Positions 26,183 to 54,896 of a DNA stretch of 64,000 nucleotides are shown here, in pieces (the stretch's first letter is position 1; each line of letters starts with the position of its first letter). Source of the stretch: an uncultured Sulfurovum sp. (GTDB taxonomy: Bacteria; Campylobacterota; Campylobacteria; Campylobacterales; Sulfurovaceae); NCBI GenBank assembly GCA_964527805.1, contig CAZGNT010000006.1, forward strand, positions 1,540 through 65,539, written 5' to 3'. The position numbers and the translations under genes are program-made. The notes under the pieces were generated by a model that was not told where the DNA came from, did not search any database, and was given only the letters and a program-made list of their open reading frames with translations.

Positions 26183-26206
26183 CGTTATCTACAAAAAAAT
26201 ATAACG
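26183..26206. promoter_or_regulatory. Mo-box-like 24-bp palindrome 1 (putative ModE-type operator) upstream of modA
   Basis: CGTTATCTA-CAAAAA-AATATAACG. Fits CGnTATATA-N6-TATATAnCG with 2 mismatches; lies 76 nt upstream of the modA ATG; same geometry as the sites at 38063 and 47295. Confidence 0.55.
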
Positions 26207-26218
26207 ATATGATTTTGG

Positions 26219-26234
26219 TGGAACGATTTTTGCA
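26219..26234 (+). promoter_or_regulatory. sigma54 (RpoN)-type -24/-12 promoter-like element upstream of modA
   Basis: TGGAACGATTTTTGCA versus consensus TGGCACG-N4-TTGCW. GG and GC are separated by exactly 10 nt, with one mismatch in the specified positions. It lies 48 nt upstream of the modA ATG. Confidence 0.35.
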
Positions 26235-26281
26235 TTATGATTATGCGTTATACAAATATATATATAAAGGAAGAAAATCTT

Positions 26282-27040
26282 ATGGGGACAATTTCAAAAC
26301 TATTATTTGCCTTTGTGGTACTGATTACAACATCATGGGCGCAAACAATCACTGTAGCTGTTGCTGCTAATATGAAATATGCAGCTAATGACATTGTCAA
26401 AGCTTTCACAAAAGAAAGCGGCATAGGCGTCAAAATCATCACGGGAGCTTCGGGCAAACTGACACAGCAAATTATGAGCGGGGCTCCGTTCGATGCGTTT
26501 CTTTCTGCAGACGTAGAATATCCCGCTAAACTCGCAAAAGCCGGGTACGCTACAACTCCTGCGCAAGTCTACGCTTACGGCACGCTGATTCTTTGGAGCA
26601 ATACGGGAGTCGATTTGTCCAAAGGTGTTGCGATAGTAGCTGATCCCTCTGTCAAAAAAATAGCAGTTGCCAATCCTAAAACCGCACCTTACGGTATAGA
26701 GGCCATGAATGCCATAAAGTACTTCAAGGCAACCGCAAAAGCGCAGCCAAAACTAGTAATCGCAGAATCTATATCCCAAGTCGGCGCATATGTAACCACA
26801 AAAGCTGTTGACGTAGGTTTCATAGCAAAATCAATCGTTTTGACCCCTGAGATGAAAAATGTAGGCAAATGGATAGAAGTGGGTCCGAATACATACAATA
26901 CCATAGACCAAGCGATGGTAGGACTCAAAAACGGCACGCCGGAAAATCAAATCGCTGCTAAGAAATTTTTACGCTTTATGTCATCGCCAAAAGCAGTTGC
27001 AATTTTAAAAGCTAACGGATATGGCTTGCCAAAACAATAA
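26282..27040 (+). CDS. modA: molybdate ABC transporter substrate-binding protein
   Basis: Signal peptide, then 'ITVAVAANMKYA...ITGASGKLTQQIMSGAPFDAFLSAD...PKTAPYG'. AAGGAAG RBS before ATG 26282. Confidence 0.88.
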   Translation: MGTISKLLFAFVVLITTSWAQTITVAVAANMKYAANDIVKAFTKESGIGVKIITGASGKLTQQIMSGAPFDAFLSADVEYPAKLAKAGYATTPAQVYAYGTLILWSNTGVDLSKGVAIVADPSVKKIAVANPKTAPYGIEAMNAIKYFKATAKAQPKLVIAESISQVGAYVTTKAVDVGFIAKSIVLTPEMKNVGKWIEVGPNTYNTIDQAMVGLKNGTPENQIAAKKFLRFMSSPKAVAILKANGYGLPKQ

Positions 27041-27123
27041 AATTTGTCAAATTGGGCAACATTGTGTGCACATAAGCGCATAGATGAGATTATTCTCACA
27101 ATATAATATAAACAAGGATAAAT

Positions 27124-28506
27124 ATGACAAAGCTCAGTATCGCAACAACACTTCTTTTGGGAGCTACTGTGTTTGTACAAGCTGCGGATGATTTGGCAAG
27201 TGCGCTTAGCGAAGGCAAATGGGAAAAACGCATAAGAATGCAGTACTTTTATACAGATTGGGATGACAATAGTATAACAGGCAAAAACGGAGATGACGCC
27301 AAAGGCTTTGCTGCGGGAGGAAGCCTGATCTATAAAACTGCACCGCTATATGGTTTTAGTGCCGCGCTTGGAGCATATACCACACTCAATCCGGGACATT
27401 GGACCGATGCCGAAGACGGCGCTACTGCTACAACTAGCTTGGACCTATTCAAAAGAGCAGGAAGCCAAAAGTTCTATGGCCAAGGGTATGGAGTGCTGGC
27501 GCAATCATATCTAGAATATGATATTGCAAGAACCAAGATCAAAGGCGGCAGATTTCTCATGAAAAATCCATGGATAGACCCAAATGATACCAAAATGATA
27601 CCTATAGCCGTAGAGGGCACGCAAATAATATCGAATGATATACCAAATACTACTATTCAAATGGATTATGCCAATAGATTTAAAGAGAGAGGCGAAACAT
27701 ATTTTGGCAACATGGCAGACGGCCTAGATGTTCCAAATGCTATCAGGCTCAAATACAACACGCATTATAACACGGGAGATGAAGCTAACGGTCAAGCGCC
27801 TGATGTATTGATAGCAGGAGTTATAAATAGATCTATTGATGGATTCGAACTCAAGGTATGGGGAATGCACTGGGACGATCTAGTAGAGCAGGTGATGGTG
27901 GAAGCAAATTATGCAGTTGAAGCAGGAGATTTTATATTTGGGCTTGGAGGACGATACATTCAACAATTTGACCAAGGTGCAGGAGAACTTATCAAGCCTA
28001 TGGTCAACAATGGAGACAATGACAACAGCATAGATACATCTCTTTGGGCTTTGCGAGCAACTGCCCATTACGGTGTGGCCAAAGTATTGGTCTCCGCATC
28101 CCAAACAAGCGAAGATGGTGATATGATATCTCCTTGGCGCGGATTTTCTACAGGCGGATATACTAGAAGCAAAACCGTCACGGATTGGAATGCCAACACT
28201 AAGTCATTCAAAATATTGGGAGAATATGATTTTGATGAATATATTTCAGGTCTCAGTACTATAATAAGCTATTCACACTATGATAGGGATCCTAGCAAAA
28301 AACCATACTCTAGCGCTACCAATCGCGGATTTGCCAACGGCGACACAAATCAATGGAATCTAGATATAGTCCAAAAACTTTCGGGCAACTTTAATGGCAT
28401 AGAATTAAAAGCTAGATTTATGGACCAAGACAACAAACCAACTGTGCTATATCCATTACAAACTTCAAACCGTGAAATGCGTTTAGAAGCAAATTATAGA
28501 TTTTAA
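27124..28506 (+). CDS. OprD-family outer-membrane porin embedded in the mod operon
   Basis: 460 aa; signal peptide 'ATVFVQA/AD'; 'GKWEKRIRMQYFYTDW' N-terminal strand typical of Campylobacterota OprD-like porins; alternating beta-strand pattern; C-terminal 'EANYRF' (terminal Phe). Confidence 0.7.
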   Translation: MTKLSIATTLLLGATVFVQAADDLASALSEGKWEKRIRMQYFYTDWDDNSITGKNGDDAKGFAAGGSLIYKTAPLYGFSAALGAYTTLNPGHWTDAEDGATATTSLDLFKRAGSQKFYGQGYGVLAQSYLEYDIARTKIKGGRFLMKNPWIDPNDTKMIPIAVEGTQIISNDIPNTTIQMDYANRFKERGETYFGNMADGLDVPNAIRLKYNTHYNTGDEANGQAPDVLIAGVINRSIDGFELKVWGMHWDDLVEQVMVEANYAVEAGDFIFGLGGRYIQQFDQGAGELIKPMVNNGDNDNSIDTSLWALRATAHYGVAKVLVSASQTSEDGDMISPWRGFSTGGYTRSKTVTDWNANTKSFKILGEYDFDEYISGLSTIISYSHYDRDPSKKPYSSATNRGFANGDTNQWNLDIVQKLSGNFNGIELKARFMDQDNKPTVLYPLQTSNREMRLEANYRF

Positions 28507-28515
28507 AAAGGATAT

Positions 28516-28914
28516 ATGTTGAATAGACTCAAAGGAAAAATAGTCTCTATCCAATCATCACAGCACCTCTCGTTTCTTGAGATCGGCATAGAAGATGACA
28601 TACTGCATCTTCTTTTGCTTGAAAAACCTATCGAGAGTGTCGGCTCGGACGTGATCTTGGTATTTAAAGAAAGCGAAGTGATGCTCTCAAAAAAACCCCT
28701 GTTCTCAACTGCCAATACCTGCAAGGCCCGTATATACAAAATAGAATACGGAGAGATACTAACTTGCGTAACACTGCTTTATAAAGACAAACAGATTACG
28801 GCCCTTGCACCAACTGCTTCTTTTGAGTCGCTTAATTGCAAATTGAACGAAGAGGTTTATTGGATCATAAATCCAAGTGAAATTTCGCTTCAAAGGGAAC
28901 ATCATGGAAAATGA
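28516..28914 (+). CDS. stand-alone TOBE/Mop-type molybdate-binding protein (no HTH)
   Basis: 132 aa; 'NRLKGKIVSIQSS..LSFLEI' and second half 'NTCKARIYKIEYGEILTCVTL', suggesting two TOBE-like halves. Occupies the same position as the TOBE gene between modA and modB in Campylobacter mod operons. Confidence 0.7.
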   Translation: MLNRLKGKIVSIQSSQHLSFLEIGIEDDILHLLLLEKPIESVGSDVILVFKESEVMLSKKPLFSTANTCKARIYKIEYGEILTCVTLLYKDKQITALAPTASFESLNCKLNEEVYWIINPSEISLQREHHGK

Positions 28915-29578
28915 ATTCATAGAAACCATGGTGCTCACGTTTGAGCTGGCTTCAATTACAACGCTAATTCTTTTGTTTATCAGTATACCTTTGGCTGCTT
29001 TTTTAGTATTTACAAAAACGCGATTTAAAAGCATAGTTGAAACTATCGTGAGCATGCCTCTCGTTCTACCACCATCAGTGCTAGGATTTTATCTCCTTTT
29101 AGCATTTAGTCCTGCATCATTTATAGGTGAATTTTTGACAAATCACGGCATAAGATTGGCTTTTAGTTTCGAAGGGTTAGTGATCGGTTCAGTACTTTTT
29201 AGCCTGCCGTTTATGGTGCATCCTATCCAGTCGGCACTTTCTCAAGTCCCGCACTCTATTTTTGAGGCGGCATACACTCTGGGCAAATCAAAACTTACCA
29301 CGCTTGTACGCGTCATACTGCCGCTTATCCGTCATGGACTTATATCTGGGATCGTGTTGGCATTTGCGCATACTGTAGGCGAATTTGGAGTAATCTTGAT
29401 GATTGGTGGCAATATCCCTGATGAAACACGTGTCGCATCTATTGCTATTTATGACGAGGTAGAATCTCTCAACTATGCGATGGCACATCAATATGCCCTA
29501 ACATTGTTTATAGTTACTTTTTCTATACTGCTACTCGTATATACGCTCAATAAAAAATCACTTGAGGGGCTTAAATGA
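28904..29578 (+). CDS. modB: molybdate ABC transporter permease
   Basis: 5-6 TM helices; EAA loop 'FEAAYTLGKSKLTTLVRVILPL'. Start set to ATG 28904 (MENEFIET), overlapping the TOBE stop. Confidence 0.88.
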   Translation: MENEFIETMVLTFELASITTLILLFISIPLAAFLVFTKTRFKSIVETIVSMPLVLPPSVLGFYLLLAFSPASFIGEFLTNHGIRLAFSFEGLVIGSVLFSLPFMVHPIQSALSQVPHSIFEAAYTLGKSKLTTLVRVILPLIRHGLISGIVLAFAHTVGEFGVILMIGGNIPDETRVASIAIYDEVESLNYAMAHQYALTLFIVTFSILLLVYTLNKKSLEGLK

Positions 29579-30456
29579 TAATCGTAAATGCAACCAAACA
29601 ACTCAATACAGCCGATGGGATTTTGCAAGCACACTTTGAGCTCACGATAAATGACGGCGAGTTTCTCACTCTCTTTGGTCTTTCAGGAGCAGGGAAGACG
29701 ACACTTATGCGTATGATCGCAGGATTAGAGATCCCCGATAACGGTCGTATCGAAGTAGATGGAGAGGTGTGGTTTGATAGTGAACTTAAGATCAATCTTC
29801 CTCCGCAAAAACGGAGTGTCGGATTTGTTTTTCAAGATTATGCCCTATTCCCAACGATGAATGTCAGACAAAATCTCCTTTTTGCTGCCGAGAACAACTC
29901 TCAGCGCAAATATGTAGATACGCTGCTAGGAATGATCGAACTCACATCACTTTCTGAGCGTCTACCCGCTACTCTATCAGGAGGACAAAAGCAGCGAGTT
30001 GCCTTGGCAAGAGCTTTGGTACGTCATCCAAAGATCCTGCTTCTTGATGAGCCGCTCTCTGCACTTGATCCTGCTATGCGCCAAAAACTCCAAGATGAGC
30101 TCATGATGATCCATGATCGTTTGGGAGTAACAACGCTTCTAGTAAGCCATGATATAGCAGAAACGGTAAAGCTCTCTGATCGTCTGGCTGCTATCGAAAA
30201 AGGGCGCGTGGGGCGCGTATGCACTCCGATGGAATTTTTCACGACTCACACTCTTAGCGGTAAACTTCAGCTTATAGGAGAAGTACTTAAAATAGAAAGG
30301 GAATCGCCGATCATCATTGTGACTCTACTGGTTGGATCATCTATTGTACGGACTGTTGTCAGTCAAGACGAGGGAGAAAAGCTCCGACTTGGAGAGCACG
30401 CCCTGATATCTGTCAAAGCGTTTAACCCTATCGTGCTTCCTTTAAACGAGAAATAG
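29575..30456 (+). CDS. modC: molybdate ABC transporter ATP-binding protein with C-terminal TOBE domain
   Basis: Walker A 'GLSGAGKTT', signature 'LSGGQKQRVALARAL', Walker B 'LLLDEPLSALD'; C-terminal 'LSGKLQLIGEVLKI...' TOBE-like. ATGA overlap with modB. Confidence 0.88.
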   Translation: MIIVNATKQLNTADGILQAHFELTINDGEFLTLFGLSGAGKTTLMRMIAGLEIPDNGRIEVDGEVWFDSELKINLPPQKRSVGFVFQDYALFPTMNVRQNLLFAAENNSQRKYVDTLLGMIELTSLSERLPATLSGGQKQRVALARALVRHPKILLLDEPLSALDPAMRQKLQDELMMIHDRLGVTTLLVSHDIAETVKLSDRLAAIEKGRVGRVCTPMEFFTTHTLSGKLQLIGEVLKIERESPIIIVTLLVGSSIVRTVVSQDEGEKLRLGEHALISVKAFNPIVLPLNEK

Positions 30457-30458
30457 CC

Positions 30459-31226
30459 ATGAAACCTTTTTTCTACGGTGCATTGATAGGAATATTAGGC
30501 GGTCTAATGGGGCTAGGAGGTGCTGAATTTCGCCTCCCTGTTCTTACGCTTTTATTTGATTTTGCGACACTCCATGCAATTGTTATCAATCTTGTTATCT
30601 CGTTTGTCACTGTTGCATTTTCACTTATTTTTAGACTAGAGGGCATGGGGTGGATCATACCTTATCTGCCAATTGTTTTCACTCTGCTTATCGGCTCACT
30701 TGCCGGGGCGTCGATCGGGGTAAGCATAGCGTCTCGTATAAATGAAAAAAAACTAGACCGGATTGTCGCGATACTGCTAGGTATCATCGCACTTGTCATA
30801 ATAGGTGAATCATTTATTGATCCGCACAATGTTGTTTGGAATCCTGCTGTACAAATGACAGTCGGCATAATCGCAGGCGTTATCATAGGAATGTTTAGCA
30901 GCATGCTCGGAGTTGCGGGGGGAGAGCTTATCATTCCGACCATTATGCTCCTCTACGGTATGGATATTAAAATCGCCGGCACCCTCTCATTGGCAGTGAG
31001 CCTGCCGACTATCTTGGTCGGATTGTACCGCTACCGCACTAAAGAGCCGTTTAAGATTTTGCGTCCAAATATGAAATTCATTCTTTGTATGGCACTCGGC
31101 TCGATACTTGGTGCAGCTATCGGCAAAATGATGATGGGCTTTGTGAGCAGCGAAGCGCTTCGAGTTATATTGGCGGTTATTTTAACCATCTCGGCTATCA
31201 AACTTTATAGAAAGGCTGTGGTATGA
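30459..31226 (+). CDS. TauE/SafE-family anion exporter-like membrane protein
   Basis: 255 aa, 7-8 TM helices; duplicated 'G(L/V)xGGE(F/L)' motifs ('MGLGGAEFRLP', 'LGVAGGELIIP'); starts 2 nt after the modC stop. Confidence 0.7.
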   Translation: MKPFFYGALIGILGGLMGLGGAEFRLPVLTLLFDFATLHAIVINLVISFVTVAFSLIFRLEGMGWIIPYLPIVFTLLIGSLAGASIGVSIASRINEKKLDRIVAILLGIIALVIIGESFIDPHNVVWNPAVQMTVGIIAGVIIGMFSSMLGVAGGELIIPTIMLLYGMDIKIAGTLSLAVSLPTILVGLYRYRTKEPFKILRPNMKFILCMALGSILGAAIGKMMMGFVSSEALRVILAVILTISAIKLYRKAVV

Positions 31227-31981
31227 TTTTTTTAAACCCTGCCGTTATACTTAAAAAAATACAGCGTGATGACTCGCTATCGAGACATATCAAATCATTT
31301 ATAGCTTCGCTGGCGATATATATGATACTTGTGGCATCCATACTCTACTTAGGCTCTACTCATACGATACCTATGCCGAAATCAGAAACAAAAATCTCTA
31401 TCTCACTAACCGAGTTTGCACCTAATGCCGGAGAAATACACCACGCGGCACAAATACAAAAAAATATTGTGAAACAGTTGATAAAACCACAATCACAAAA
31501 TAAACCTTTAAAACCGGTCGAGAAAACGACCCCTCAGAAAAAGTCATTCAAATCCCCAATGGCATATTCTGAGGGGCCTGCCCCTCTAAACACACCCGTT
31601 GCCGCGCCTTCGGCTTCACATTCTACCCCCACCCCTCATTTGAATGTTTCTTCTGAAATAAAAAACGAATTGCAAAGAGATCCCCATTCTAGCAATGAGG
31701 TCGGCGGCGCGACATTGGGCCAAATTAGGGCTATGATCGAAAATGCTATTACCTACCCTGCTATAGCCCGTAAATTGAGACTCGAAGGAGTAGTCTTGGT
31801 TTTTTTTATACTCAAGCCGGATGGCTCTGTAGAAACCGTCAAAGTTCAATCAACTAGCGGCAGCAATATTTTAGATCAAAAAGCAATCCAAACGATTCTC
31901 AGCCTCAGCGGTCAATACCCGGCACTCGGAAAGACCTTTGAATTGAGTATCCCGATCGCATTCTCATTAAAGAAATCATAA
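31223..31981 (+). CDS. tonB: TonB-family energy transducer
   Basis: N-terminal TM anchor; Pro/Lys-rich spacer 'KPQSQNKPLKPVEKTTPQKK'; C-terminal 'YPAIARKLRLEGVVLVFFILKPDGSVETVKV..SSGSNILDQKAI'. ATGA overlap with tauE. No exbB/exbD in the window. Confidence 0.82.
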   Translation: MIFLNPAVILKKIQRDDSLSRHIKSFIASLAIYMILVASILYLGSTHTIPMPKSETKISISLTEFAPNAGEIHHAAQIQKNIVKQLIKPQSQNKPLKPVEKTTPQKKSFKSPMAYSEGPAPLNTPVAAPSASHSTPTPHLNVSSEIKNELQRDPHSSNEVGGATLGQIRAMIENAITYPAIARKLRLEGVVLVFFILKPDGSVETVKVQSTSGSNILDQKAIQTILSLSGQYPALGKTFELSIPIAFSLKKS

Positions 31982-31989
31982 GGAAAAAC

Positions 31990-33012
31990 ATGAATATAAC
32001 ATTACGTATTATGCTTGCGGCATTCTTGCTGTGTTTAACGCTTGATGCTAAAACTATCATTGATACGGAAGGCAAAAAGATCACATTGCCGGACAATATC
32101 AGTAGAGTTTTTGGTGCATCTCCGCCGACAAATTACCTGATTTACGCTCTTAACCCGGACAAAATGATAGGTTTAAATTTTAAGGCCAAAAATGCCCAAA
32201 ACGGTGCTGACGGGAAATTTTTAAATAAAAAATTTCTCTCATTGCCTGTCATCGGCACATTCCATGGCGGGGGGCAGGGCATAAACCTGGAAGCCCTCAT
32301 AAAACATGAACCGGAACTTATATTGGTATGGCAAGACGACATGATGGTGCAATCCATCAAAAAAGAGCTAACAAAGATCCATACTCCTACTTTGATGATC
32401 CCGTTTCGTGAAGTCACAGACATGCCTTTAGCATTCAGACTTGCCGGAAATGCCATAGGAGAGAGCAAACGAGGAGAAATACTGGCAAAATATTCACAAA
32501 ATATTATCAATGAAGTCAAAGCAAATACTTCAAAGACAAAACCTACGAGATACTATTACGCTGAAGGCTTGGATGGGTTATCGACCGAATGTGACCAGTC
32601 GTTCCATGTTGAAGCGATTAACTTTGCAGGCGGAGTTAACGTGCACAAGTGCCGCCAAAAAGATCTTTTAGGGCTTGAAAAGATTTCTTTTGAAACTCTG
32701 CTGCAATACAACCCTGATGTTATTTTTGTACAAACTGCCGTAGTTTATAACGATATCAAAGATGACCCTATGTGGAAAAACCTAAAAGCCGTCAAAAACG
32801 GCCGTATCCATCTAGTCCCCGTGCAGCCGTTTAACTGGATAGACCGTCCACCGTCATTTATGAGAGTGCTCGGCATTCAATGGCTTGCTAAGAAAATGCA
32901 TCCGCAAACATATAAAATAAACCTAAATCATCGCACAAAAGAGTTTTATGACCTCTTTTTGCATGTCAAATTGACAGACCAACAAACCAAAAATTTACTA
33001 GGAGTTAAATAA
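31990..33012 (+). CDS. FecB/class-8 periplasmic substrate-binding protein (PBP-1)
   Basis: 340 aa; signal peptide, 'PERVFGASPP', 'PELILVW', 'YYYAEGLDGLSTEC', 'PFNWIDRPPSFMRVLGIQWL'. Clear paralogue of the ORF at 37059. Confidence 0.8.
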   Translation: MNITLRIMLAAFLLCLTLDAKTIIDTEGKKITLPDNISRVFGASPPTNYLIYALNPDKMIGLNFKAKNAQNGADGKFLNKKFLSLPVIGTFHGGGQGINLEALIKHEPELILVWQDDMMVQSIKKELTKIHTPTLMIPFREVTDMPLAFRLAGNAIGESKRGEILAKYSQNIINEVKANTSKTKPTRYYYAEGLDGLSTECDQSFHVEAINFAGGVNVHKCRQKDLLGLEKISFETLLQYNPDVIFVQTAVVYNDIKDDPMWKNLKAVKNGRIHLVPVQPFNWIDRPPSFMRVLGIQWLAKKMHPQTYKINLNHRTKEFYDLFLHVKLTDQQTKNLLGVK

Positions 33013-35252: not shown

Positions 35253-35260
35253 GGGACAAG

Positions 35261-38039: not shown

Positions 38040-38062
38040 TCAAAAGAGTTTATCGTGCCTAT

Positions 38063-38086
38063 CGATATATTAAAAATAGTATAACG
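38063..38086. promoter_or_regulatory. Mo-box-like 24-bp palindrome 2 (putative ModE-type operator)
   Basis: CGATATATT-AAAAAT-AGTATAACG (3 mismatches to CGnTATATA-N6-TATATAnCG). Nested inside a longer inverted repeat GCCTATCG...CGATAGGC (38057-38092). Lies 34 nt upstream of ATG 38120. Confidence 0.5.
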
Positions 38087-38119
38087 ATAGGCAAAACATT
38101 AAAAAAACAAGGAGTAAGA

Positions 38120-38740
38120 ATGAACAAACACACACAAAACAATGGTTGCCAATCATGCAAAACAACATCTTTTGCACAAGTAGCACAAACAGCACCCTTT
38201 GCTCAAAACAGCCGTAATTTTGGAGGAGAAGATATCCGCATAGTAGACTCGATGATTGATTTTATCTATCCTCCGGTTCCGTTTCCTTCCAATAAAATTT
38301 TTAAAACGATGGGCGAAGAAAAAATTCGTGAAATGGTATGGCATCATCACCGATTGCTTCTAAAAACAAAGGTGGGAGACCTTTTTCCCAGAAACGAAGA
38401 AGCTTTTAAAATGGCTGTAGATAAAAGTGCCGACTTATTTGTAGAAGCACTCGGAGGAGATCCGATATTTACCGAACAGCACGGAGGGTTTCATCTGCGA
38501 ATGCGGCATTTCAAAGTTCCGATTGATGAAAATGACCGCGAAATTTGGCTCGCTATGTATAAAAAAACGCTCAAAGATATCGATTTTCCAAAAGAACATC
38601 TAGAAGAGTTCTGGAATTGGATAGAGCCGCTTTCTATCCGCATGATAAATAGACGCACTACCATGGAAGCTGTCAAACGGCACCATTGGAGCACTGTCAA
38701 AAGAGAATTGACGGGAGCAGGAAAAGATAATGAACGCTAG
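38120..38740 (+). CDS. group II (YjbI/trHbO-like) truncated haemoglobin with ~50-aa N-terminal extension
   Basis: 206 aa. 'ALGGDPIFTEQHGGFHLRMRHFKVPIDENDREIWLAMYKKTL' matches the 2/2-globin group II pattern GGP..Y...rGHP.LR.RH..F.I....D.WL, with the proximal His in 'RMRH'. The N-terminus contains 'CQSC'. No signal peptide. AAGGAG RBS. Confidence 0.65.
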   Translation: MNKHTQNNGCQSCKTTSFAQVAQTAPFAQNSRNFGGEDIRIVDSMIDFIYPPVPFPSNKIFKTMGEEKIREMVWHHHRLLLKTKVGDLFPRNEEAFKMAVDKSADLFVEALGGDPIFTEQHGGFHLRMRHFKVPIDENDREIWLAMYKKTLKDIDFPKEHLEEFWNWIEPLSIRMINRRTTMEAVKRHHWSTVKRELTGAGKDNER

Positions 38741-40913: not shown

Positions 40914-40914
40914 A

Positions 40915-41949
40915 ATGTATAGGCTCACAACTAACTTCATGATCTGTGTTTCTCTGCTCTGCGGCATTGCCCTGGCAGACAATAAACAAACATGTGCAAA
41001 TAAAGTGCCGGATTTTGCCAAAAATGAAGTTTGCATTCCGCAAAAGATAGATAAGATCATTATCACTTGTTATGGCGGCGCATCACAAGAGATAGCGCTT
41101 TTTATGGGTGCTGGCAAAATCGTTGCACAACCCGATGTTAAAAAATTTCAGCAATTTCTAAAAATCTATCCGACACTGAAAAACATTCCAAACGCAGGGA
41201 CTTTTAACGATGTAAATCTGGAGTATTTATTAAAATTGAATCCCGACATCGTTTTTGCAGGAGTCACTTCGATTCCTTCCAACGAACGGATAAAAGAGAT
41301 GAATATTCCGGTATTTACCCTTGGCATCGGCAAACACAACATTTCTTCTCTTATGGAAGAGTTTTTACACGTCGGAAAAATTCTTCATAAGGAGCAAAAG
41401 GCCAAAGAACTGATCAGATATTGGCATTCCAAAATGGACATGATCCGCCTTCGGATTCCTAAGGTCAAATCATCAAAACCACAAAAAGTATTTTACACTA
41501 ATAGTCCATCATCGGGACTAAACAGCGAACACAAACAATGGTGGGGCGATGAGTTTATCCGCGCTGCCGGAGGGGTAAATGTCGCCTCGGATATTGTTAT
41601 ACAAGGACCGATTTCTGCTGAAACACTGTCAATATGGAACCCAGATATCATTATCACATCGACCAATAATAAATCCAATGCTTCGGCCGGTGGATTTATG
41701 AAAAATACCGCCTTTAAAAATCTTAAAGCAGTCAGAAACAGAGTAGTTTATCAAGCGCCTATAGGAACTTTTTGGTGGGATCGCCCATCGCCTGAATCTA
41801 TTTTAGGAATTATATGGCTAAGTAAAATTTTATATCCTGAAGCAATGCATGATATCGACTTAAAACAAGAAACAAAAGTATTTTACAAAAAGTTTTACAA
41901 CTACACTCTTTCCGACAAAGAATATGTAGAATTTTTTGTCCCCCAATAA
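40915..41949 (+). CDS. FecB/class-8 periplasmic substrate-binding protein (PBP-3, distinct subfamily)
   Basis: About 344 aa from ATG 40915 (MYRLTTNF..., signal peptide 'GIALA/DN'); 'PDIVFAGV', 'YQAPIGTFWWDRPSPESILGIIWLSK'. The track start at 40867 is TTG inside TBDR-2. Confidence 0.75.
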   Translation: MYRLTTNFMICVSLLCGIALADNKQTCANKVPDFAKNEVCIPQKIDKIIITCYGGASQEIALFMGAGKIVAQPDVKKFQQFLKIYPTLKNIPNAGTFNDVNLEYLLKLNPDIVFAGVTSIPSNERIKEMNIPVFTLGIGKHNISSLMEEFLHVGKILHKEQKAKELIRYWHSKMDMIRLRIPKVKSSKPQKVFYTNSPSSGLNSEHKQWWGDEFIRAAGGVNVASDIVIQGPISAETLSIWNPDIIITSTNNKSNASAGGFMKNTAFKNLKAVRNRVVYQAPIGTFWWDRPSPESILGIIWLSKILYPEAMHDIDLKQETKVFYKKFYNYTLSDKEYVEFFVPQ

Positions 41950-41967
41950 AAATAATAAGGAAAAACC

Positions 41968-42585
41968 ATGAAAGGCGCAACAGGCCCTAAAAATTTTGAC
42001 CGGATAGTGCGTGAAGTATTCGCACCAATCTATCCGGTCATAGCAAAACAGATCAAAGAACGCACCAAGATCACTAGCGGCAAATGCCTGGATGCCGGAT
42101 GCGGCACGGGAGCGCTCGGAAGAGCCATAACCAAGATCACTGATCTTAACATCACATTTTTTGACCAATCAGATGAAATGCTTTCTCTTGCAAAAGGATA
42201 TACGAATGATGAGAATATCGGCAACAGAAGTACTTTTTTGCAAGGAGATATTCACTCTATTCCGCTAAATGATGAGAGCATGGATATAGTAATTAGCCGG
42301 GGTTCATCTCCATTTTGGGAAGATTGGCACAAAGCATATAGAGAAATACTCCGAATTCTCAAGCCGGGAGGCATGGCATACATCGGTGGAGGATTTGGCA
42401 ACGCTGAGCTTAGAGAAGAGATCACAAGGACAATGACCAAAAATAACCCAGACTGGCGCAATTCTTTTAAAGATAAAGTCGTCGCTGAGCGTGAAGCCCT
42501 TCTGGATATTCTAAGATCGCTCAATCCTAGCCACTTTGAAATAATCAATGATGACAGCGGCTTTTGGGCTGTCATTACTAAATAA
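41968..42585 (+). CDS. class I SAM-dependent methyltransferase (MT-1)
   Basis: 205 aa; motif I 'CLDAGCGTGALG', motif II 'MDIVISRG', 'LKPGGMAYIG'. Confidence 0.8.
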   Translation: MKGATGPKNFDRIVREVFAPIYPVIAKQIKERTKITSGKCLDAGCGTGALGRAITKITDLNITFFDQSDEMLSLAKGYTNDENIGNRSTFLQGDIHSIPLNDESMDIVISRGSSPFWEDWHKAYREILRILKPGGMAYIGGGFGNAELREEITRTMTKNNPDWRNSFKDKVVAEREALLDILRSLNPSHFEIINDDSGFWAVITK

Positions 42586-42594
42586 GGAAAATTT

Positions 42595-43602
42595 ATGAAA
42601 ATAGGACTTTTTTGTCTTGCTGAACATTTCGAAGGAAAAGTACATGAAAGCATAATGGATCAGTTGAGACTTGTAGAGCTTGCTGACAAACTCGGTTTTG
42701 ATGAAGCGTGGTTTGGCGAACACCATTTTAACGGCTTTAGCGTTATCCCCGATCCATCTATTATGATGGCTTATGCTTCTGTCAAAACAGAATCTATTCG
42801 TTTGGGAACAGCCGGTTTTTTGGCTCCATTTTATCATCCGGTACGATTAGCCGAGAGCATATCGGTACTTGACAATCTCTCAAAGGGCCGAATAAATGCA
42901 GGATTTGCAAAAGGAGGATTTGCTCCTGATAATAAACATTTTAACCGCGATCCTGATAGCCTGCGCAATGCAATGTTTGAGATAGTCGAGGCTGTAGATA
43001 AGCTTTTACATCTACAAAATACTTCTTTTAAAGGAACATATGCGTCTTTTAAAAAAGTAAAATTGCATCCAAAACCATTACAAGAACGAATACCTTTTTT
43101 TGTAGCTACATTCTCGAGCCCCGATACGATCCATTTTGCCGCACGCCTCGGTTATGGTTTGCTTATGTCGCAAGGAGCTACTATAGAGGAGTGCAAAGAA
43201 GCGCAAGAGTTATATCGATCCATTGCCGGATTTGATCCAAAGATCGTACTCATGCGGGTATTTTGTATCGCAGATAGCCATGAAGATGCTTACCGCATCG
43301 CGCGGCCCTCAATTGACCATTTTGTCAAATCAATGCGCGCTGCCTCTTCTGAAGTTCCGCCTCCAAAGTGGAACAGGGAAAAATATGATGCGATAATTAG
43401 TGAGCGTGAAACATTTTTCGATGGACAAAAATTTTTTGACAATGCTATATTGGGAGCACCCCCTGAGTGCATCCAAACTATTAAAACCATAAAGAAGGAA
43501 CTGCCAAATGTACACCTTGCATTAAAGCCGTCATCAAATGATTTTAATCAAAATTACGACATGCTGATAGAATTTAACGCAAGAATTCGACCATATATCT
43601 AA
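42595..43602 (+). CDS. LLM-class (luciferase-like) flavin-dependent oxidoreductase
   Basis: 335 aa; 'FDEAWFGEHHFNGFSV.PDP', 'LDNLSKGRINAGFAKG', TIM-barrel LLM pattern. Confidence 0.78.
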   Translation: MKIGLFCLAEHFEGKVHESIMDQLRLVELADKLGFDEAWFGEHHFNGFSVIPDPSIMMAYASVKTESIRLGTAGFLAPFYHPVRLAESISVLDNLSKGRINAGFAKGGFAPDNKHFNRDPDSLRNAMFEIVEAVDKLLHLQNTSFKGTYASFKKVKLHPKPLQERIPFFVATFSSPDTIHFAARLGYGLLMSQGATIEECKEAQELYRSIAGFDPKIVLMRVFCIADSHEDAYRIARPSIDHFVKSMRAASSEVPPPKWNREKYDAIISERETFFDGQKFFDNAILGAPPECIQTIKTIKKELPNVHLALKPSSNDFNQNYDMLIEFNARIRPYI

Positions 43603-43617
43603 AAACAAGGAAAAACA

Positions 43618-45579
43618 ATGAACAAACACTTACTTATCCTCTCGTTTGCTGCTTGTGCAGCGCTTGCCGATACTTTTACGCTCGGACAGATCAGCGTTCT
43701 TGATACTGCTCTTGAAGAGAGCCCTTTTGAGCAAACTATAACTTCAAAAGAGATCGAACAACACGATTCGGAAACCATTTCGGACGCCATTGATAATATG
43801 AGCGGAATTAACCAGGATCTTCAAGGAGGCCGCGGAGAATCTACCCTATCTATAAGAGGATTTGATGCCAGGCGTATAGGGGTATTTATAGACGGAATAC
43901 CAGTCTATGTCCCATATGACGGCAATTTCGATTATGACCGTTTCCTGACTAGCGATATCGCTCAGATCGATGTAGCCAAGGGGTTCTCGTCGGTTGCATA
44001 TGGAGCCAATACGATGGGAGGGGTTATCAACATCATCTCCAAAAAACCGACAAAAGCATTGGAGGGGAATATTAAAGCAGGGATTATAAGCGATAGTGAC
44101 GGTTCTATGTCCAGACATGTCGAATCTATCAATCTAGGGACTAGACAAGACCATTTCTACGCACAATTAAGCGGGGTGTACAGTGATCGGGATCATTTTC
44201 GCCTAAGCGATGATTATAGCGCCACCCCTTCACAGCCTGAAGGTGACCGTTTGCGTTCTAAAGCAGAGGATTACAAGATAAGCTTTAAAACCGGCTATAT
44301 AGCAAATGACGGCAGCGAGATCGCCGTGGGATATGCAAAACAAAATGGTGAAAAACAGCAACCGCCAGTAACCGATAATGCTTTTAGCAAGCCAAAATAT
44401 TGGGATTGGCCGTACTGGAATAAAGAGACCGCCTATATCACAGGCCAAAAAAATCTAGACTTGGGATACCTCAAAGCAGTTGCCTATTACGATACATCCA
44501 AAAACTCTCTATATGCATATGATGATGCGTCGTATTCCACAATGAACTTCAAATCATCATTTAAAAGCAAATACGATGATTATAGTGCAGGGACACGTCT
44601 CGAATACGGGGTCGAACTAGACAAGCATTTTATCACCGCTGCAGCAAACTATAAAAAAGATTCCCACAAAGGGTATGATATCGACAAAACTACAGACATT
44701 GCAACCCTCACAGAGCATTTTGTTGACGATACGGTATCGCTTGGCATAGAAGATGTATATACCATTTCTCCAAACTGGCAGCTATTAGGAGGGATCAGTT
44801 ATGACCGCAAAGAATCCGACAAAGCGTACGACAAAAATTCCGGGAAATTTCCTTTGGCCCTAGGAGAACAAGATGCTCTCAATCCTCAAGCGGCACTTAT
44901 CTATTCTATTGACAATACCAGCAAAATGCGTGCAAGTATCTCTCGCAAAACATATCTTCCGAGCATGAAAGACCGCTATAGCAGAAAGCTTGGCACAGCA
45001 CTTCCAAATCCAGATCTTGACGCTGAGACAGCTACACACTATGAACTCAGCTATCAAAAAAATATGGGGGCTTTTAGCGGACATATCAACGGATTTTTTG
45101 ACCGGCTAGATGACACGATCCAAGCTGTGATCGTGACGCCTGACGAGACACAGAACCAAAATATAGGAAGCTTTGACCACAGAGGCATCGAAGCAGAGCT
45201 GAGTTACAAAGCCGACTGGCTGGAGATCGGAGGAAATTACACATATATTTCTGTGAAAAATCGTACCGATAATGATATCAAAAGGATAGACATTCCCAAG
45301 CATCAAATTTTTGCTTTCGCTCAATATGAGCTAGGTGATGGGATTTCTATATATGGGAATATGAAATTTCGCAAAGGAGCATATGAACAAAAAGCCGATA
45401 AATCATACGTGATCAATCCGGCTTTTACGACATTTGACATCAAAGTTATCTATCGACCGACCGAAGCTATCACTGCAGAGATCGGAGTAAAAAACCTTAC
45501 TAATGAACTCTATGCTTATGACCTTGGGTTTCCGACGGCGGGACGTGAGTTTTTCATCAACCTAGGATATAATTTCTAA
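43618..45579 (+). CDS. TonB-dependent receptor (TBDR-3, BtuB/CirA-sized)
   Basis: 653 aa; signal peptide 'AALA/DT', TonB box-like 'TLGQISVLD', plug 'LSIRGFDARRIGVFIDGIPVY', 'GANTMGGVINIISKKP', C-terminal 'FINLGYNF'. Confidence 0.85.
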   Translation: MNKHLLILSFAACAALADTFTLGQISVLDTALEESPFEQTITSKEIEQHDSETISDAIDNMSGINQDLQGGRGESTLSIRGFDARRIGVFIDGIPVYVPYDGNFDYDRFLTSDIAQIDVAKGFSSVAYGANTMGGVINIISKKPTKALEGNIKAGIISDSDGSMSRHVESINLGTRQDHFYAQLSGVYSDRDHFRLSDDYSATPSQPEGDRLRSKAEDYKISFKTGYIANDGSEIAVGYAKQNGEKQQPPVTDNAFSKPKYWDWPYWNKETAYITGQKNLDLGYLKAVAYYDTSKNSLYAYDDASYSTMNFKSSFKSKYDDYSAGTRLEYGVELDKHFITAAANYKKDSHKGYDIDKTTDIATLTEHFVDDTVSLGIEDVYTISPNWQLLGGISYDRKESDKAYDKNSGKFPLALGEQDALNPQAALIYSIDNTSKMRASISRKTYLPSMKDRYSRKLGTALPNPDLDAETATHYELSYQKNMGAFSGHINGFFDRLDDTIQAVIVTPDETQNQNIGSFDHRGIEAELSYKADWLEIGGNYTYISVKNRTDNDIKRIDIPKHQIFAFAQYELGDGISIYGNMKFRKGAYEQKADKSYVINPAFTTFDIKVIYRPTEAITAEIGVKNLTNELYAYDLGFPTAGREFFINLGYNF

Positions 45580-46382
45580 TGCGTACAATTATATTTATTT
45601 TATTATTTTGTTTTTCGTCGGTTCAACTATATGCCAAACAAGAACCTGCTTTACGTGTTGCTGTTATAGGTGGCATGACTATGAGCGGCATGTGGCAAGA
45701 GGTTTCAAAAGCATTTGAAGAAGCTTATCATATTCCCGTTGAAGTAGTAGTTTCAGGCCCAAAACACGAACTTGACAAATACAGCAGGACTCACAAAGTT
45801 GATCTGGTCACAATGCACTCAAGCGATACCATGGTAGACTTGGCAGCCGACGGGATGGTCGAGAACCTAACGCCATGGGCTCGAAATTCACAGATGCTAG
45901 TAGGCCACATGTCAAATCTTGCGCACATAGATGAAAACGACTCCCTGGAAGAAGCCATGCAAAAAATCAGTCAAACAAACTCTCCCATTCTTATACATGC
46001 CAGTGGAGGGACATTTGAGGTTTTTAATGATGTAGCCTCTTCTTATAAATTATCACCCGGCCAGATCCATTTGATTACCGCCAAGCATGGTTTTTTAGAT
46101 GATGTTGCCAAACTTAAAGGATATACATTTTTTGGCGTTATACCATTTTTGATGCAAAAACAGCATCATCCTGATATGCACGGTTTTATATTTGATGATA
46201 CCAAGCTTCGCAGGCCATATCTTGCAGCGATAGGGACCAAAGAAAACATAGGTGCGCTCCAACACCAAAATGCACAAAAACTGCTTTTATTCCTCACGTC
46301 CAAGAGAGTGCAAAACCTTATTAAAAATTTTAGGCTCAACGGATTTGACAAAACCCCTGTATTTTTTCCGGTAAAACCCTAG
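45579..46382 (+). CDS. periplasmic PBP2-fold substrate-binding-domain protein, TupA/tungstate-binding-like but divergent
   Basis: 267 aa; signal peptide 'VQLYA/KQ'; 'LRVAVIGGMTMSGMW..V...FE...HIPVEVVVSGPK' is laid out like TupA 'ATTTSTxxSGL...F......V.V.AVGTG', but the TTTS anion-binding motif is not conserved. 1-nt TAATG overlap with TBDR-3. Confidence 0.5.
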   Translation: MRTIIFILLFCFSSVQLYAKQEPALRVAVIGGMTMSGMWQEVSKAFEEAYHIPVEVVVSGPKHELDKYSRTHKVDLVTMHSSDTMVDLAADGMVENLTPWARNSQMLVGHMSNLAHIDENDSLEEAMQKISQTNSPILIHASGGTFEVFNDVASSYKLSPGQIHLITAKHGFLDDVAKLKGYTFFGVIPFLMQKQHHPDMHGFIFDDTKLRRPYLAAIGTKENIGALQHQNAQKLLLFLTSKRVQNLIKNFRLNGFDKTPVFFPVKP

Positions 46383-46388
46383 GAGGAT

Positions 46389-47189
46389 ATGATGATATTT
46401 TTAAAACAGATCGATTTTGCTAGAATGTACCGTGAACATAAAAGCGCTACCGACTTCAAGGGCAAAAGCAGCAACGACTGGGATGATAAATCCAAAGAGA
46501 TGGCAGCGTCTGTCATCAATAGCCCATACGTGAACGACTTTATCTCGCGTATGGATATTTCTGGAGACGAAGTGGTATTGGATATCGGTTGCGGGCCTGG
46601 GACGCTTGCGATCCCTCTTGCCAAAAAAGTCAAAGAGGTGATAGCTATAGACTTCTCAAAGCAAATGTTAGCCGAACTCGAAGCTTATGCCGCGCGCGAG
46701 GGAGTGACAAATATCCGTACCTATCACCTAAGCTGGGAAGACGACTGGAGTATTTTACCGTCTGTTGATATCGCAGTGGCGTCTCGCAGTACGGAGGTCA
46801 AAGATATTGATACCGCACTTGCTAAAATGTCGCATCAAGCAACAAAGGCATGTTATCTGACCTACAAAGTAGGCGGCAGTTTTGTCGACATGGATATCCT
46901 TGAGTATATCGGCAAAAAAATAGTTACTAAACCTGATTTTTGGTATATCCCTGTTTTGTTATACCAACACGGCTATCTGCCTCGTATCGACTATATAGAA
47001 ACCAAACGAGGGAGTATACGCGCAGGCAATGCTGATGAATTTGTACAATCACTTATCTGGAGTGTGCATGATCTTGACACAGAGCAGCAGCGCAAAGCCC
47101 GTGAATATTATTATAAATTTATCGCCGCACAAGATCGTCAGCCTAAACCGTTCGTTTGGGCATTCATATCTTGGAGTAGTAGAGTTTAA
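46389..47189 (+). CDS. class I SAM-dependent methyltransferase with C-terminal extension (MT-2)
   Basis: 266 aa; motif I 'VLDIGCGPGTLA', 'VIAIDFS'; AGGAGG RBS. Confidence 0.78.
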   Translation: MMIFLKQIDFARMYREHKSATDFKGKSSNDWDDKSKEMAASVINSPYVNDFISRMDISGDEVVLDIGCGPGTLAIPLAKKVKEVIAIDFSKQMLAELEAYAAREGVTNIRTYHLSWEDDWSILPSVDIAVASRSTEVKDIDTALAKMSHQATKACYLTYKVGGSFVDMDILEYIGKKIVTKPDFWYIPVLLYQHGYLPRIDYIETKRGSIRAGNADEFVQSLIWSVHDLDTEQQRKAREYYYKFIAAQDRQPKPFVWAFISWSSRV

Positions 47190-47235
47190 AGATTTTATTT
47201 TTACATCACAAATATAGATTATTATATTTTATAAA

Positions 47236-47264
47236 ATACAATGATATTTATTTTATCATTGTAT
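47236..47264 (+). terminator. AT-rich stem-loop after MT-2 (candidate terminator)
   Basis: Perfect 11-bp inverted repeat ATACAATGATA / TATCATTGTAT with a 7-nt loop, 47 nt after the MT-2 stop; a T-tract (tagttttttta) lies about 15 nt downstream. Confidence 0.45.
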
Positions 47265-47294
47265 ATTGTTCAAAAAAATAGTTTTTTTATGATT

Positions 47295-47318
47295 CGATAT
47301 ATATTTAAAGATATATCG
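47295..47318. promoter_or_regulatory. Mo-box-like 24-bp palindrome 3 (putative ModE-type operator)
   Basis: CGATATATA-TTTAAA-GATATATCG (1 mismatch to CGnTATATA-N6-TATATAnCG). Part of the perfect 11-bp-arm inverted repeat ATTCGATATAT-N8-ATATATCGAAT (47292-47321). Lies 75 nt upstream of ATG 47393. Confidence 0.6.
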
Positions 47319-48160: not shown

Positions 48161-48181
48161 CATTATTAAAACGGGAAAAAT

Positions 48182-54318: not shown

Positions 54319-54328
54319 ACTATTCTCC

Positions 54329-54892: not shown

Positions 54893-54896
54893 TTTC

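Follow-up and report, generated by a model that had tools for sequence, protein, structure and literature searches.

The window, the whole stretch of 64,000 nucleotides that was analysed, belongs to a Sulfurovaceae (Campylobacterota) genome and carries an island of plus-strand genes that appear to form three transcription units (Table 1). Unit 1 would combine a high-affinity modABC system, a porin and a Mop-like protein with TonB, a TonB-dependent receptor and a MolBC-A-like importer. Unit 2 would add a globin, a monooxygenase, two methyltransferases, two further TonB-dependent receptors and two binding-protein-like genes, and Unit 3 an orphan gene and modD; folE, 36 nt after modD, may be co-transcribed with Unit 3. 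The permease of Unit 1 has a BtuC/FecCD fold and is closest to Haemophilus influenzae MolB (HI1471, 7.8e-61, versus 1.7e-46 for FhuB), and the three cluster-A binding proteins match MolA (HI_1472) at 2.6e-24 (third protein), 1.6e-13 and 4.4e-14, with only two uncharacterised structures ranked above it. The importer is a predicted MolBC-A-like type II system; the binding proteins, of low identity to MolA, may bind molybdate or tungstate. The orphan gene of Unit 3 had been labelled a degenerate methyltransferase in the initial annotation, a label that we could not confirm, as a Pfam search found no domain in its product and the AlphaFold model has a pLDDT of 36.

Table 1. Genes and palindromic sites of the island. 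Predicted units: Unit 1, 26282..38039 (+); Unit 2, 38120..47189 (+); Unit 3, 47393..49027 (+). Mismatches are counted over the 16 specified positions of CGnTATATA-N6-TATATAnCG; PWM, score with a weight matrix trained on sites of other genomes.
Feature	Position	Strand	Evidence
Site 1, distal candidate ModE-type operator upstream of modA	26183..26206	.	2 mismatches; PWM 25.2
Proximal Mo-box-like fourth site, CGTTATACAAATATATATATAAAG	26246..26269	.	2 mismatches; PWM 23.2
modA	26282-27040	+	Pfam/NCBIfam; TIGR01256, 162 bits
OprD-family porin	27124-28506	+	Pfam/NCBIfam
132-aa di-TOBE/Mop-like protein	28516-28914	+	Pfam/NCBIfam
modB	28877-29578	+	Pfam/NCBIfam
modC	29575-30456	+	Pfam/NCBIfam
TauE-family permease	30459-31226	+	Pfam/NCBIfam
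TonB	31223-31981	+	Pfam/NCBIfam
Weak Mo-box-like sequence in first 15 codons of TonB (codes VILKKI), uncertain status	31243..31266	.	PWM 15.7
MolA-like binding protein (first)	31990-33012	+	Pfam/NCBIfam; MolA HI_1472 in top three PDB matches
TonB-dependent receptor	33012-35252	+	Pfam/NCBIfam
MolB-like permease	35261-36280	+	Best PDB match HI1471 MolB
ABC ATPase	36271-37062	+	Pfam/NCBIfam
MolA-like binding protein (second)	37059-38039	+	Pfam/NCBIfam; MolA HI_1472 in top three PDB matches
Site 2, candidate ModE-type operator, 80-bp gap before globin-like gene	38063..38086	.	3 mismatches; PWM 22.5
Truncated-globin-like protein	38120-38740	+	Pfam; family profile vs PDB 4NK1/4NK2, 5.9e-62
TonB-dependent receptor	38730-40913	+	Pfam
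MolA-like binding protein (third)	40867-41949	+	Full-length MolA match
SAM methyltransferase	41968-42585	+	Pfam
Luciferase-like monooxygenase	42595-43602	+	Pfam
TonB-dependent receptor	43618-45579	+	Pfam
ModA/TupA-like fold protein	45579-46382	+	TupA similarity weak only
Methyltransferase	46389-47189	+	Pfam
Second weak Mo-box-like site, 75 bp upstream of Site 3	47220..47243	.	PWM 17.5
Site 3, best-matching candidate ModE-type operator	47295..47318	.	1 mismatch; PWM 26.1
255-aa Sulfurovaceae-specific orphan	47393-48160	+	8 clusters in 5.8 billion proteins
modD	48182-49027	+	TIGR01334, 187.9 bits, above cut-off
folE	49064-49666	+	

Each predicted unit is preceded by a palindrome, and re-reading of the window gave the three sequences as initially quoted, Site 1 being CGTTATCTA-CAAAAA-AATATAACG and Site 3 CGATATATA-TTTAAA-GATATATCG. 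The distances of 76, 34 and 75 nt to the next start codon also agree with the gene starts (75, 33 and 74 intervening nucleotides). The claim that all three share TATATA holds only approximately, because Sites 1, 2 and 3 carry 2, 3 and 1 mismatches. When both strands of the 64 kb were ranked with the matrix, the top four positions were these three sites and the one at 26246-26269 (22.5–26.1); the next-best scores were 17.5 and 15.7, and all others were 12 or lower. The fourth site lies 63 bp from Site 1 and its right half reaches the Shine-Dalgarno sequence of modA, a proximal geometry that recurs in relatives (L008 512, L010 491, L011 9970, L020 6270, L025 6277 and L069 9936), where the distance from site centre to start codon has its mode at 20–30 nt. 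As to the two weaker sequences, the one upstream of Site 3 is probably non-functional and is not conserved in the other haplotype of the spacer, and the one inside TonB is kept in L014 and L015 with a closer fit to the pattern (2–3 mismatches).

The Escherichia coli ModE consensus is ATCGnTATATA-N6-TATATAnCGAT, that is ATCGNTATATA-[N6]-TATATANCGAT (PMC545781), and the sites in the window are imperfect matches to it with the same 9-6-9 geometry. In the matrix base identity is high at T6 (0.99), A19 (0.99) and C1 (0.94), a resemblance to the consensus that is partly by construction, since the training sites were picked with that pattern. The positions left unconstrained reproduce the published flanks: position 3 is mostly T (0.84) and position 22 mostly A (0.82), and outside the pattern the left CG is preceded by aT and the right CG followed by A. 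Applied to the 2.2-kb E. coli modE-acrZ-modA region, the relatives' matrix found a single match, CGTTATATTGTCGCCTACATAACG, 20 nt before modA, which scores 16.8 with a runner-up position at 0.1, and which we take to be the footprinted ModE operator. In the window, Site 1 and the 26246-26269 site likewise precede modA, and Sulfurovaceae loci have the same consensus as loci with a linked modE.

Conservation was assessed in 86 sequences (1.5 Mb), namely the window and 85 fetched homologous loci from Sulfurovaceae, Sulfurimonadaceae, Sulfurospirillum, Arcobacteraceae and some Proteobacteria. The motif occurs 141 times in 138 kb of intergenic DNA versus 33 times in 1378 kb of coding DNA, and among the 53 GTDB loci that span 15 kb or more, 43 have one or more intergenic boxes. 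The intergenic copies mostly precede the same cluster genes across loci (MolA-like proteins 21, globin 20, modE itself 17, receptors 14, TonB 7, porin 7, modA 6, modD 3), and the motif is kept ahead of orthologous units while its flanks diverge. The CG-TATA...TA-A-CG skeleton of Site 2 is invariant in an alignment of five Sulfurovaceae loci, and in L014 its core is inverted relative to the window between flanks of the same orientation, which fits a symmetric protein-binding dyad. The core of Site 3 is identical in L004–L006 and L015; its spacer is known in two haplotypes only, and as the whole stretch from the box through the ATG is conserved, the box does not stand out from its surroundings. 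The reading of the palindromes as Mo-boxes put forward in the initial annotation thus gains support from the consensus match, the recovery of the E. coli modA dyad, the conservation before orthologous units and the linkage to modE in relatives.

This linkage is frequent. Of the 91 loci searched, 31 have a ModE helix–turn–helix domain within 10 kb, with canonical modE (HTH_1 and TOBE domains, SARNQ motif) lying inside or adjoining the homologous cluster, and the domain occurs in 28 of the 53 GTDB loci that span 15 kb or more; locus L012, for example, encodes a canonical 259-aa ModE with 35% identity to the E. coli protein over its full length. The window itself was said to lack a ModE gene, and tblastn with the E. 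coli and Sulfurimonadaceae proteins indeed gave zero matches there, the only gene revealed by Pfam among its candidate small ORFs being an ordinary LysR (16842-17774, minus strand). Neither did modE appear in about 10 kb beyond the left edge, about 8.5 kb beyond the right edge or ten Sulfurovaceae loci (333 kb of Sulfurovaceae sequence searched), and a search by name identified no Sulfurovaceae ModE. A cognate regulator would presumably be encoded elsewhere in the source genome. In one relative the cluster units (L009) are boxed and modE lies elsewhere, in a boxed modE-modA-TOBE-modB-modC operon (L099), which provides a precedent for an unlinked regulator.

From these sequence comparisons, the three palindromes and the site at 26246-26269 are very probably operators of the ModE (MopA/MopB) class, through which a molybdenum/tungsten acquisition island would be shut off. 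A dimeric winged-helix regulator whose gene lies outside the window would, in its molybdate- or tungstate-bound form, bind the dyad CGTTATATA-N6-TATATAACG and turn off the three co-directional units; when molybdenum or tungsten is scarce, the sites would be free and the island expressed. The regulator would presumably act as a repressor rather than an activator, with molybdenum or tungsten as the likely effector, and any overlap of the operators with promoters is conjectural. Molybdate-bound ModE is known to repress molybdenum uptake genes (PMC11672702). A scan of the window with Rfam revealed no Moco riboswitch and no family at gathering score.

Chance AT-rich palindromes, or generic promoter or UP-element sequence bound by no specific regulator, would be favoured by the composition of the window (33–44% G+C, with A+T-rich spacers), by the likeness of TATA-like strings to −10 boxes and by the mismatches of each of the three sites. 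This explanation is effectively refuted by dinucleotide shuffling, in line with the initial remark that chance hardly explains the sites: 0.46 matches are expected in the whole window versus 4 observed (at least 4 in 0 of 100 shuffles), 0.04 versus 3 in its intergenic DNA alone (at least 3 in 0 of 200), and 1.1 ± 1.1 versus 138 in the intergenic DNA of the 86 sequences. Moreover, the same gene families follow the motif in distant taxa, including loci of 58% G+C (Janthinobacterium), and the CG pairs and their spacing are invariant while the flanks diverge. We also give very little credence to the idea that the palindromes act as RNA hairpins, that is as terminators, attenuators or processing sites between units. 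Sites 2 and 3 do fold at −9.8 and −10.7 kcal/mol (z-scores −5.5 and −3.5), and Site 2 lies only 24 nt past the stop codon of the preceding gene, but the fold of Site 1 reaches only −2.3 kcal/mol (z −1.4), a U-tract is missing from the A/U-rich stems, and a terminator scan calls none. Base identity at T6, A19 and C1 is conserved beyond mere pairing, the right half is degenerate and unpairable in many relatives' sites, and the element occurs in either orientation, as the inverted core in L014 shows.

The dyads could also be operators of another metal regulator, such as Fur or an iron or nickel sensor, since TonB-dependent receptors and FecCD-type importers are usually iron-regulated, and by Pfam content (TonB, with ExbBD in relatives, TonB-dependent receptors, Peripla_BP_2, FecCD and ABC ATPase) the island resembles Fur-regulated siderophore, haem and B12 loci; ModE, besides, was not found in the searched sequence of the source genome. 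This is nonetheless improbable. The motif is the ModE consensus, whereas the best match at the three promoters to the Fur box, taken from E. coli and possibly not that of the host, has 6 mismatches out of 19; modA and modE genes have the same motif ahead of them; the importer nearest in similarity to the permease and binding proteins is MolBC-A and not FhuB, BtuC or HmuU; and the cluster is interspersed with modD, modA and TOBE genes, unlike Fur-regulated loci. Finally, the boxes might be ModE-type relics left after loss of modE, or be bound by an HTH-only ModE-like protein that relies on another protein for sensing, for instance the 132-aa di-TOBE protein. The absence of modE from 333 kb of Sulfurovaceae sequence, when it is nearby in 31 of 91 loci, speaks for such a loss, as does the L099 mod operon, which begins with modE where the window has modA-TOBE-modB-modC without it; Campylobacter jejuni ModE, too, has no domain for binding metal and probably requires a partner (PMC3417520). 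We consider this unlikely, as relics would decay in A+T-rich spacers, whereas the CG/TATA skeletons are intact across several diverged Sulfurovaceae species and the boxes precede genes in contexts (L016, L018) that differ from that of the window. Intact sites across diverged species and contexts argue for ongoing selection and hence for a living regulator.

Mo-boxes of this kind are known upstream of mod genes in Rhodobacter capsulatus, whose MopA and MopB belong to the ModE family, and in Rhodobacter they also control mop and the alternative nitrogenase regulator gene anfA; that regulon is not known to have TonB-dependent targets. The E. coli operator at modA has the same dyad, CGTTATAT-N-ATATAACG, with 24 bp between the outer CpGs. 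However, modE adjoins modABC in E. coli and is absent from the window and examined flanks here, modA is here preceded by two sites 63 bp apart, and the boxes also head units with TonB, receptor, MolBC-A-like, globin and modD genes. C. jejuni shares its phylum with the source genome, and its mod operon presumably also holds a small TOBE protein. There a single ModE-like repressor, Cj1507c, controls both modABC and tupABC in response to molybdate and tungstate (PMC3417520), so that, as proposed here, ModE-type control extends over more than one transporter operon; its targets are two ABC systems and no TonB-dependent receptors, and it lacks the Mop domains, whereas the cluster-linked ModE of relatives is a full-length HTH and di-Mop protein. 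The island shares with the secondary molybdate system of H. influenzae, cluster HI1469-HI1475 (modA-molCBA-modD), the combination of MolBC-A genes with a ModA-like protein and modD (PMC3928620); its permease is nearest MolB, and for all three Peripla_BP_2 proteins MolA ranks above the listed binding proteins for siderophores, haem and B12. Molybdate and tungstate are ligands of MolA, and regulation of that cluster is poorly understood (PMC4031551); as described, it has no TonB, TonB-dependent receptors, globin, monooxygenase or methyltransferases.

The operator type is already known, and what is new is the content of the regulon, including a cluster of TonB-dependent receptors beside a molybdate pump. 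These receptors presumably carry molybdenum or tungsten species, and we propose, tentatively and as a possibility somewhat short of an even chance, that the Mo-boxes mark a conserved ModE regulon module for active, TonB-energised uptake of molybdenum and/or tungsten across the outer membrane. Three dedicated TonB-dependent receptors, the porin and three MolA-like proteins would serve the outer membrane and periplasm, a MolBC-like importer would serve the inner membrane, and the truncated globin, luciferase-like monooxygenase, two methyltransferases and ModD would process the cargo in the cytoplasm. Such a module may handle a form of the metal beyond the reach of free diffusion and ModABC; in sulfidic settings such as these bacteria inhabit, this could be thiomolybdate or a metallophore chelate. 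A 2024 review of the substrates of TonB-dependent transporters mentions neither molybdenum nor tungsten (PMC11658791). The content of the regulon points to an undescribed route of molybdenum or tungsten scavenging, which, if the proposal is true, would be the first TonB-dependent one described for these metals.

Each of the three apparent co-directional transcription units of the window, which together make up the island, is headed by a 24-bp palindrome of the form CGnTATATA-N6-TATATAnCG. The initial annotation had read these palindromes (Sites 1, 2 and 3, see the table) as Mo-boxes, that is, candidate ModE operators, lying 76, 34 and 75 nt before a start codon; on re-reading, their coordinates and sequences proved exact, and the distances agree with the next start codons at 26282, 38120 and 47393. 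The same pattern search yielded a fourth site, absent from that annotation, 63 bp downstream of Site 1. Its right half merges into the modA Shine-Dalgarno sequence, a proximal geometry seen again in many relatives, where the distance from box centre to start codon has a mode at 20-30 nt and a second mode at 90-100 nt, the latter fitting Sites 1 and 3. The whole window contains 4 pattern matches for 0.46 expected, and no dinucleotide-preserving shuffle reached 4. Because both the motif and the spacers that hold the sites are rich in A+T, the test was rerun on intergenic DNA only, where none of 200 shuffles reached the 3 matches observed. Matrix scores rank these four sites highest in the window, followed by two weak positions, all others scoring 12 or less. 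One of the two, Mo-box-like and internal to the TonB gene, has counterparts in loci L014 (3114-3137) and L015 (3143-3166) that match better than the window does; it may have arisen by coincidence of coding or serve as an internal operator.

Features of the island and its neighbours in the window (gene content from Pfam and NCBIfam searches; mismatches are to the Mo-box pattern)
Feature	Position	Strand	Mismatches	Matrix score	Content or location
mobA	11880-12470
hemH					upstream of Site 1
Site 1	26183-26206		2	25.2	heads unit 1
Fourth site	26246-26269		2	23.2	before modA
Unit 1, first part					modA, OprD-family porin, 132-aa two-TOBE (Mop-like) protein, modB, modC, TauE permease
Two-TOBE protein	28516-28914				between modA and modB
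Unit 1, second part					TonB, Peripla_BP_2 binding protein, TonB-dependent receptor, FecCD permease, ABC ATPase, second binding protein
Mo-box-like position	31243-31266			15.7	MIFLNPAVILKKIQR, within the first 15 TonB codons
Inverted repeat	38003-38050				AAAAACTCTTTTT ... AAAAGAGTTT, A/T-rich
Site 2	38063-38086		3	22.5	heads unit 2
Unit 2, first part					truncated-globin-like protein, receptor, third binding protein, methyltransferase
Globin-like protein	38120-38740
Unit 2, second part					luciferase-like monooxygenase, third receptor, weakly ModA/TupA-like protein, methyltransferase
Weak position	47220-47243			17.5
Site 3	47295-47318		1	26.1	heads unit 3
Unit 3					255-aa orphan, modD; then folE, M15 peptidase, nifS-nifU
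255-aa orphan	47393-48160
Molybdopterin oxidoreductase operon	53080-57401	minus			PhsA/PsrA-like (polysulfide/thiosulfate-reductase-like), with FeS and NrfD subunits

For ModE of E. coli the published consensus reads ATCGNTATATA-[N6]-TATATANCGAT (Rodionov et al. 2004, PMC545781). By exact-protein look-ups, the window belongs to metagenome-assembled genomes of Sulfurovaceae (Campylobacterota). Homologous loci were collected through such look-ups (six) and through globin alignment with one genome per species (79); together with the window, and with the same-species contigs L001-L006 excluded, they form a set of 86 sequences and 1.5 Mb. At three mismatches or fewer, the pattern has 141 matches in the 138 kb of intergenic DNA of this set, against 33 in 1378 kb of coding DNA, and the consensus drawn from the non-window sites, of which 133 are distinct, is atAtCGTTATATA-ttaaaa-TATATAACGAaaa. 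The specified positions of the matrix are partly circular, as its training sites were chosen with the pattern; the pattern-free positions, which are not circular, reproduce the published extended consensus (T3, A22 and AT/A flanks outside the CpGs). When the 2.2-kb modE-acrZ-modA region of E. coli was scored with the matrix, a single match was found, CGTTATATTGTCGCCTACATAACG, 20 nt before modA, with a score of 16.8 against 0.1 for the runner-up position. We take this dyad to be the footprinted ModE operator. The gene directly 3' of an intergenic box is in most cases modE itself or a cluster gene (MolA-like 21, globin 20, modE 17, receptors 14, porin 7, TonB 7, modA 6, modD 3), and the box consensus of modE-linked loci is indistinguishable from that of Sulfurovaceae loci. 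The association of boxes with the cluster is also found in Sulfurospirillum, in Arcobacteraceae and in one Janthinobacterium locus at 58% G+C, and therefore base composition cannot explain it.

Site 2 precedes the globin gene in five other Sulfurovaceae loci (L014, L015, L016, L018 and L069), of which L016 and L018 have a different gene upstream of it. Across an alignment of five sequences whose mean column identity is 73%, the CG-TATA...TA-A-CG skeleton does not vary. The Site 2 core of L014 (9944-9967) is the reverse complement of the window core with 1 mismatch, compared with about 9 mismatches in the same orientation, while the orientation of the flanks is kept. An inverted core between unturned flanks is expected of a symmetric protein-binding dyad and speaks against an RNA or promoter element with a fixed direction. 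Site 3 has the same sequence in L004-L006 and in L015, and is uninformative as a footprint because the whole stretch from box to ATG is conserved and the spacer exists in only two haplotypes. Just upstream of Site 2, an A/T-rich inverted repeat that flanks the stop codon of the binding-protein gene is kept in L014 and L015.

The rival explanations of the boxes are weak. Chance is excluded by the counts in shuffled intergenic DNA, with 1.1 +/- 1.1 matches expected and 138 observed in the 86 sequences, and 0.04 expected against 3 observed in the window. That the boxes are Fur-type operators is not supported, as a scan against the E. coli Fur box found no convincing Fur box at the three promoters. 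Nor is there support for a role as RNA hairpins: the folding energy of Site 1 is only -2.3 kcal/mol, the boxes are without U-tracts, and what is conserved is base identity, not pairing. As for a Moco riboswitch, none is present, an Rfam scan of the window having given no matches. Reading the palindromes as ModE operators, as initially proposed, is in turn supported by the published consensus, the E. coli check, the enrichment, the conservation and the linkage to modE in relatives.

The PDB entry nearest to the FecCD permease is MolB HI1471 (7.8e-61, against 1.7e-46 for FhuB), and all three binding proteins match MolA HI_1472 ahead of the listed siderophore, haem and B12 proteins. MolB and MolA belong to MolBC-A, the type II molybdate/tungstate importer of H. 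influenzae, and by these similarities the inner-membrane system seems to import molybdate or tungstate and not iron. H. influenzae likewise groups molABC with modA and modD, in what serves as its secondary Mo system (PMC3928620, PMC4031551). The globin-like protein has only 232 homologues among 5.8 billion proteins, mostly in Sulfurovum, Sulfurimonas and Sulfuricurvum, and is thus well suited as a marker of the cluster; its gene almost always adjoins TonB-dependent receptors and a MolBC-like importer. His and Cys residues are conserved in the family, and its profile matches PDB 4NK1/4NK2, 'hemoglobin-like protein', at 5.9e-62. The 255-aa orphan, labelled a degenerate methyltransferase in the initial annotation, is represented in a collection of 5.8 billion proteins by only 8 clusters, each of them Sulfurovaceae-like, with no Pfam match and an AlphaFold pLDDT of 36. 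ModC of the window is short (293 aa) and has no TOBE domain by Pfam, and the 132-aa two-TOBE protein may supply this function in trans; a 132-aa two-TOBE protein also lies between modA and modB in a Sulfurimonadaceae mod operon that starts with modE (L099 7549-7947). The matrix scan of the window gave no Mo-box at the molybdoenzyme operon or at mobA.

In another Sulfurovaceae genome (L069 8711-17321), a shorter island occupies the same chromosomal site (tig-clpP-def ... hemH); it lacks modABC and begins at once with two boxes and globin-TonB. The content of the island is therefore mosaic between species. Absence of the island from L003 and L005 was considered and rejected, both being truncated contigs colinear with the window. 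In the right flank, dnaA and dnaN (L095 4933-7487) lie about 2-5 kb past the end of the window, so that some 15-20 kb would separate the island from the probable origin of replication.

The initial annotation had found no ModE gene in the window, and tblastn with E. coli and Sulfurimonadaceae ModE, full-length and HTH-only, bears this out. The sole match, with weak HTH_1 similarity, is an ordinary LysR beside a YeiH-like gene. No modE was detected by tblastn in the flanks (about 10 kb past the left edge and about 8.5 kb past the right edge) or in ten Sulfurovaceae loci, 333 kb being searched in total, and the members of ModE protein clusters bear names from Wolinella, Sulfurimonas/Sulfonitrofixus, 'Campylobacterales' and Proteobacteria, none from Sulfurovaceae. 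Among relatives, 31 of the 91 loci searched by tblastn with the HTH domain of the L012 ModE carry a modE no more than 10 kb from the globin gene. The L012 protein is canonical (259 aa, HTH_1, two TOBE domains and a SARNQ motif) and shares 35% identity with full-length E. coli ModE. The organism of locus L009 provides a precedent for a regulator unlinked to the boxed cluster: its cluster units are boxed with no modE nearby, and its modE, found on another contig of that assembly, heads a modE-modA-TOBE-modB-modC operon with its own box. In the database the longest contig listed for each of the two proteins is 2,193,480 bp, which suggests that in another assembly a single chromosome-sized contig carries both. 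The maintenance of the boxes across diverged Sulfurovaceae argues that a cognate regulator exists, and we infer that this genome would encode one.

In E. coli, the DNA-binding domains change orientation when the Mop domains take up molybdate, and the activated dimer binds and represses uptake genes (PMC11672702), and in C. jejuni a ModE-like protein represses mod and tup (PMC3417520). Most likely, a ModE-type regulator loaded with Mo or W would repress all three units of the island, and scarcity of Mo or W would derepress them. Repression rather than activation, the unit boundaries and the overlap of operator and promoter are features that we infer; a scan of the three spacers for sigma-70 promoters and terminators gave nothing above shuffles, the sigma-70 model being ill-suited to this phylum.

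The operator is of a known, textbook kind, in a lineage for which the literature searched holds no description of it. What is new is the regulon, in which TonB, receptors, a MolBC-A-like importer, the globin, the monooxygenase, methyltransferases and modD form a conserved module under ModE boxes. Among 53 GTDB loci of at least 15 kb, 52 have receptors, 50 MolA-like proteins, 46 MolB, 43 boxes and 28 modE. In sulfur-oxidising Campylobacterota and some Proteobacteria, an entire cluster for TonB-dependent transport and associated enzymes appears to be under the control of the molybdate sensor; that the receptors carry a Mo or W species, and which one, is speculation. Literature searches on TonB-dependent Mo/W uptake, molybdophore receptors and thiomolybdate uptake returned no description of this cluster. 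A review of TonB-dependent transport gives neither Mo nor W as a substrate (PMC11658791), and how MolBC-A and ModD are regulated, and what role they play, has been called poorly understood (PMC4031551). In the one related mention, the nif cluster of Zymomonas reportedly contains modD, modE and two TonB-dependent receptors annotated as iron-associated (PMC8594446), and in a Sulfurimonas locus (L010 19041-20600) nifT and a NifA-like activator directly adjoin the cluster; these neighbourhoods hint that the module is linked to nitrogenase and its need for Mo.

Annotation pipelines call this cluster iron, siderophore or haem uptake, and the present reading would allow several hundred genes labelled 'globin', 'iron ABC transporter' or 'TonB-dependent receptor' to be re-annotated. 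That Mo is limiting in sulfidic waters is an idea of long standing in geochemistry. A ModE-controlled, TonB-dependent pathway of Mo/W acquisition is a testable hypothesis, and the ModE-boxed gene set, being defined and conserved, offers a direct handle on how these chemolithotrophs acquire Mo or W for the enzymes that handle nitrate, polysulfide or thiosulfate, and formate.
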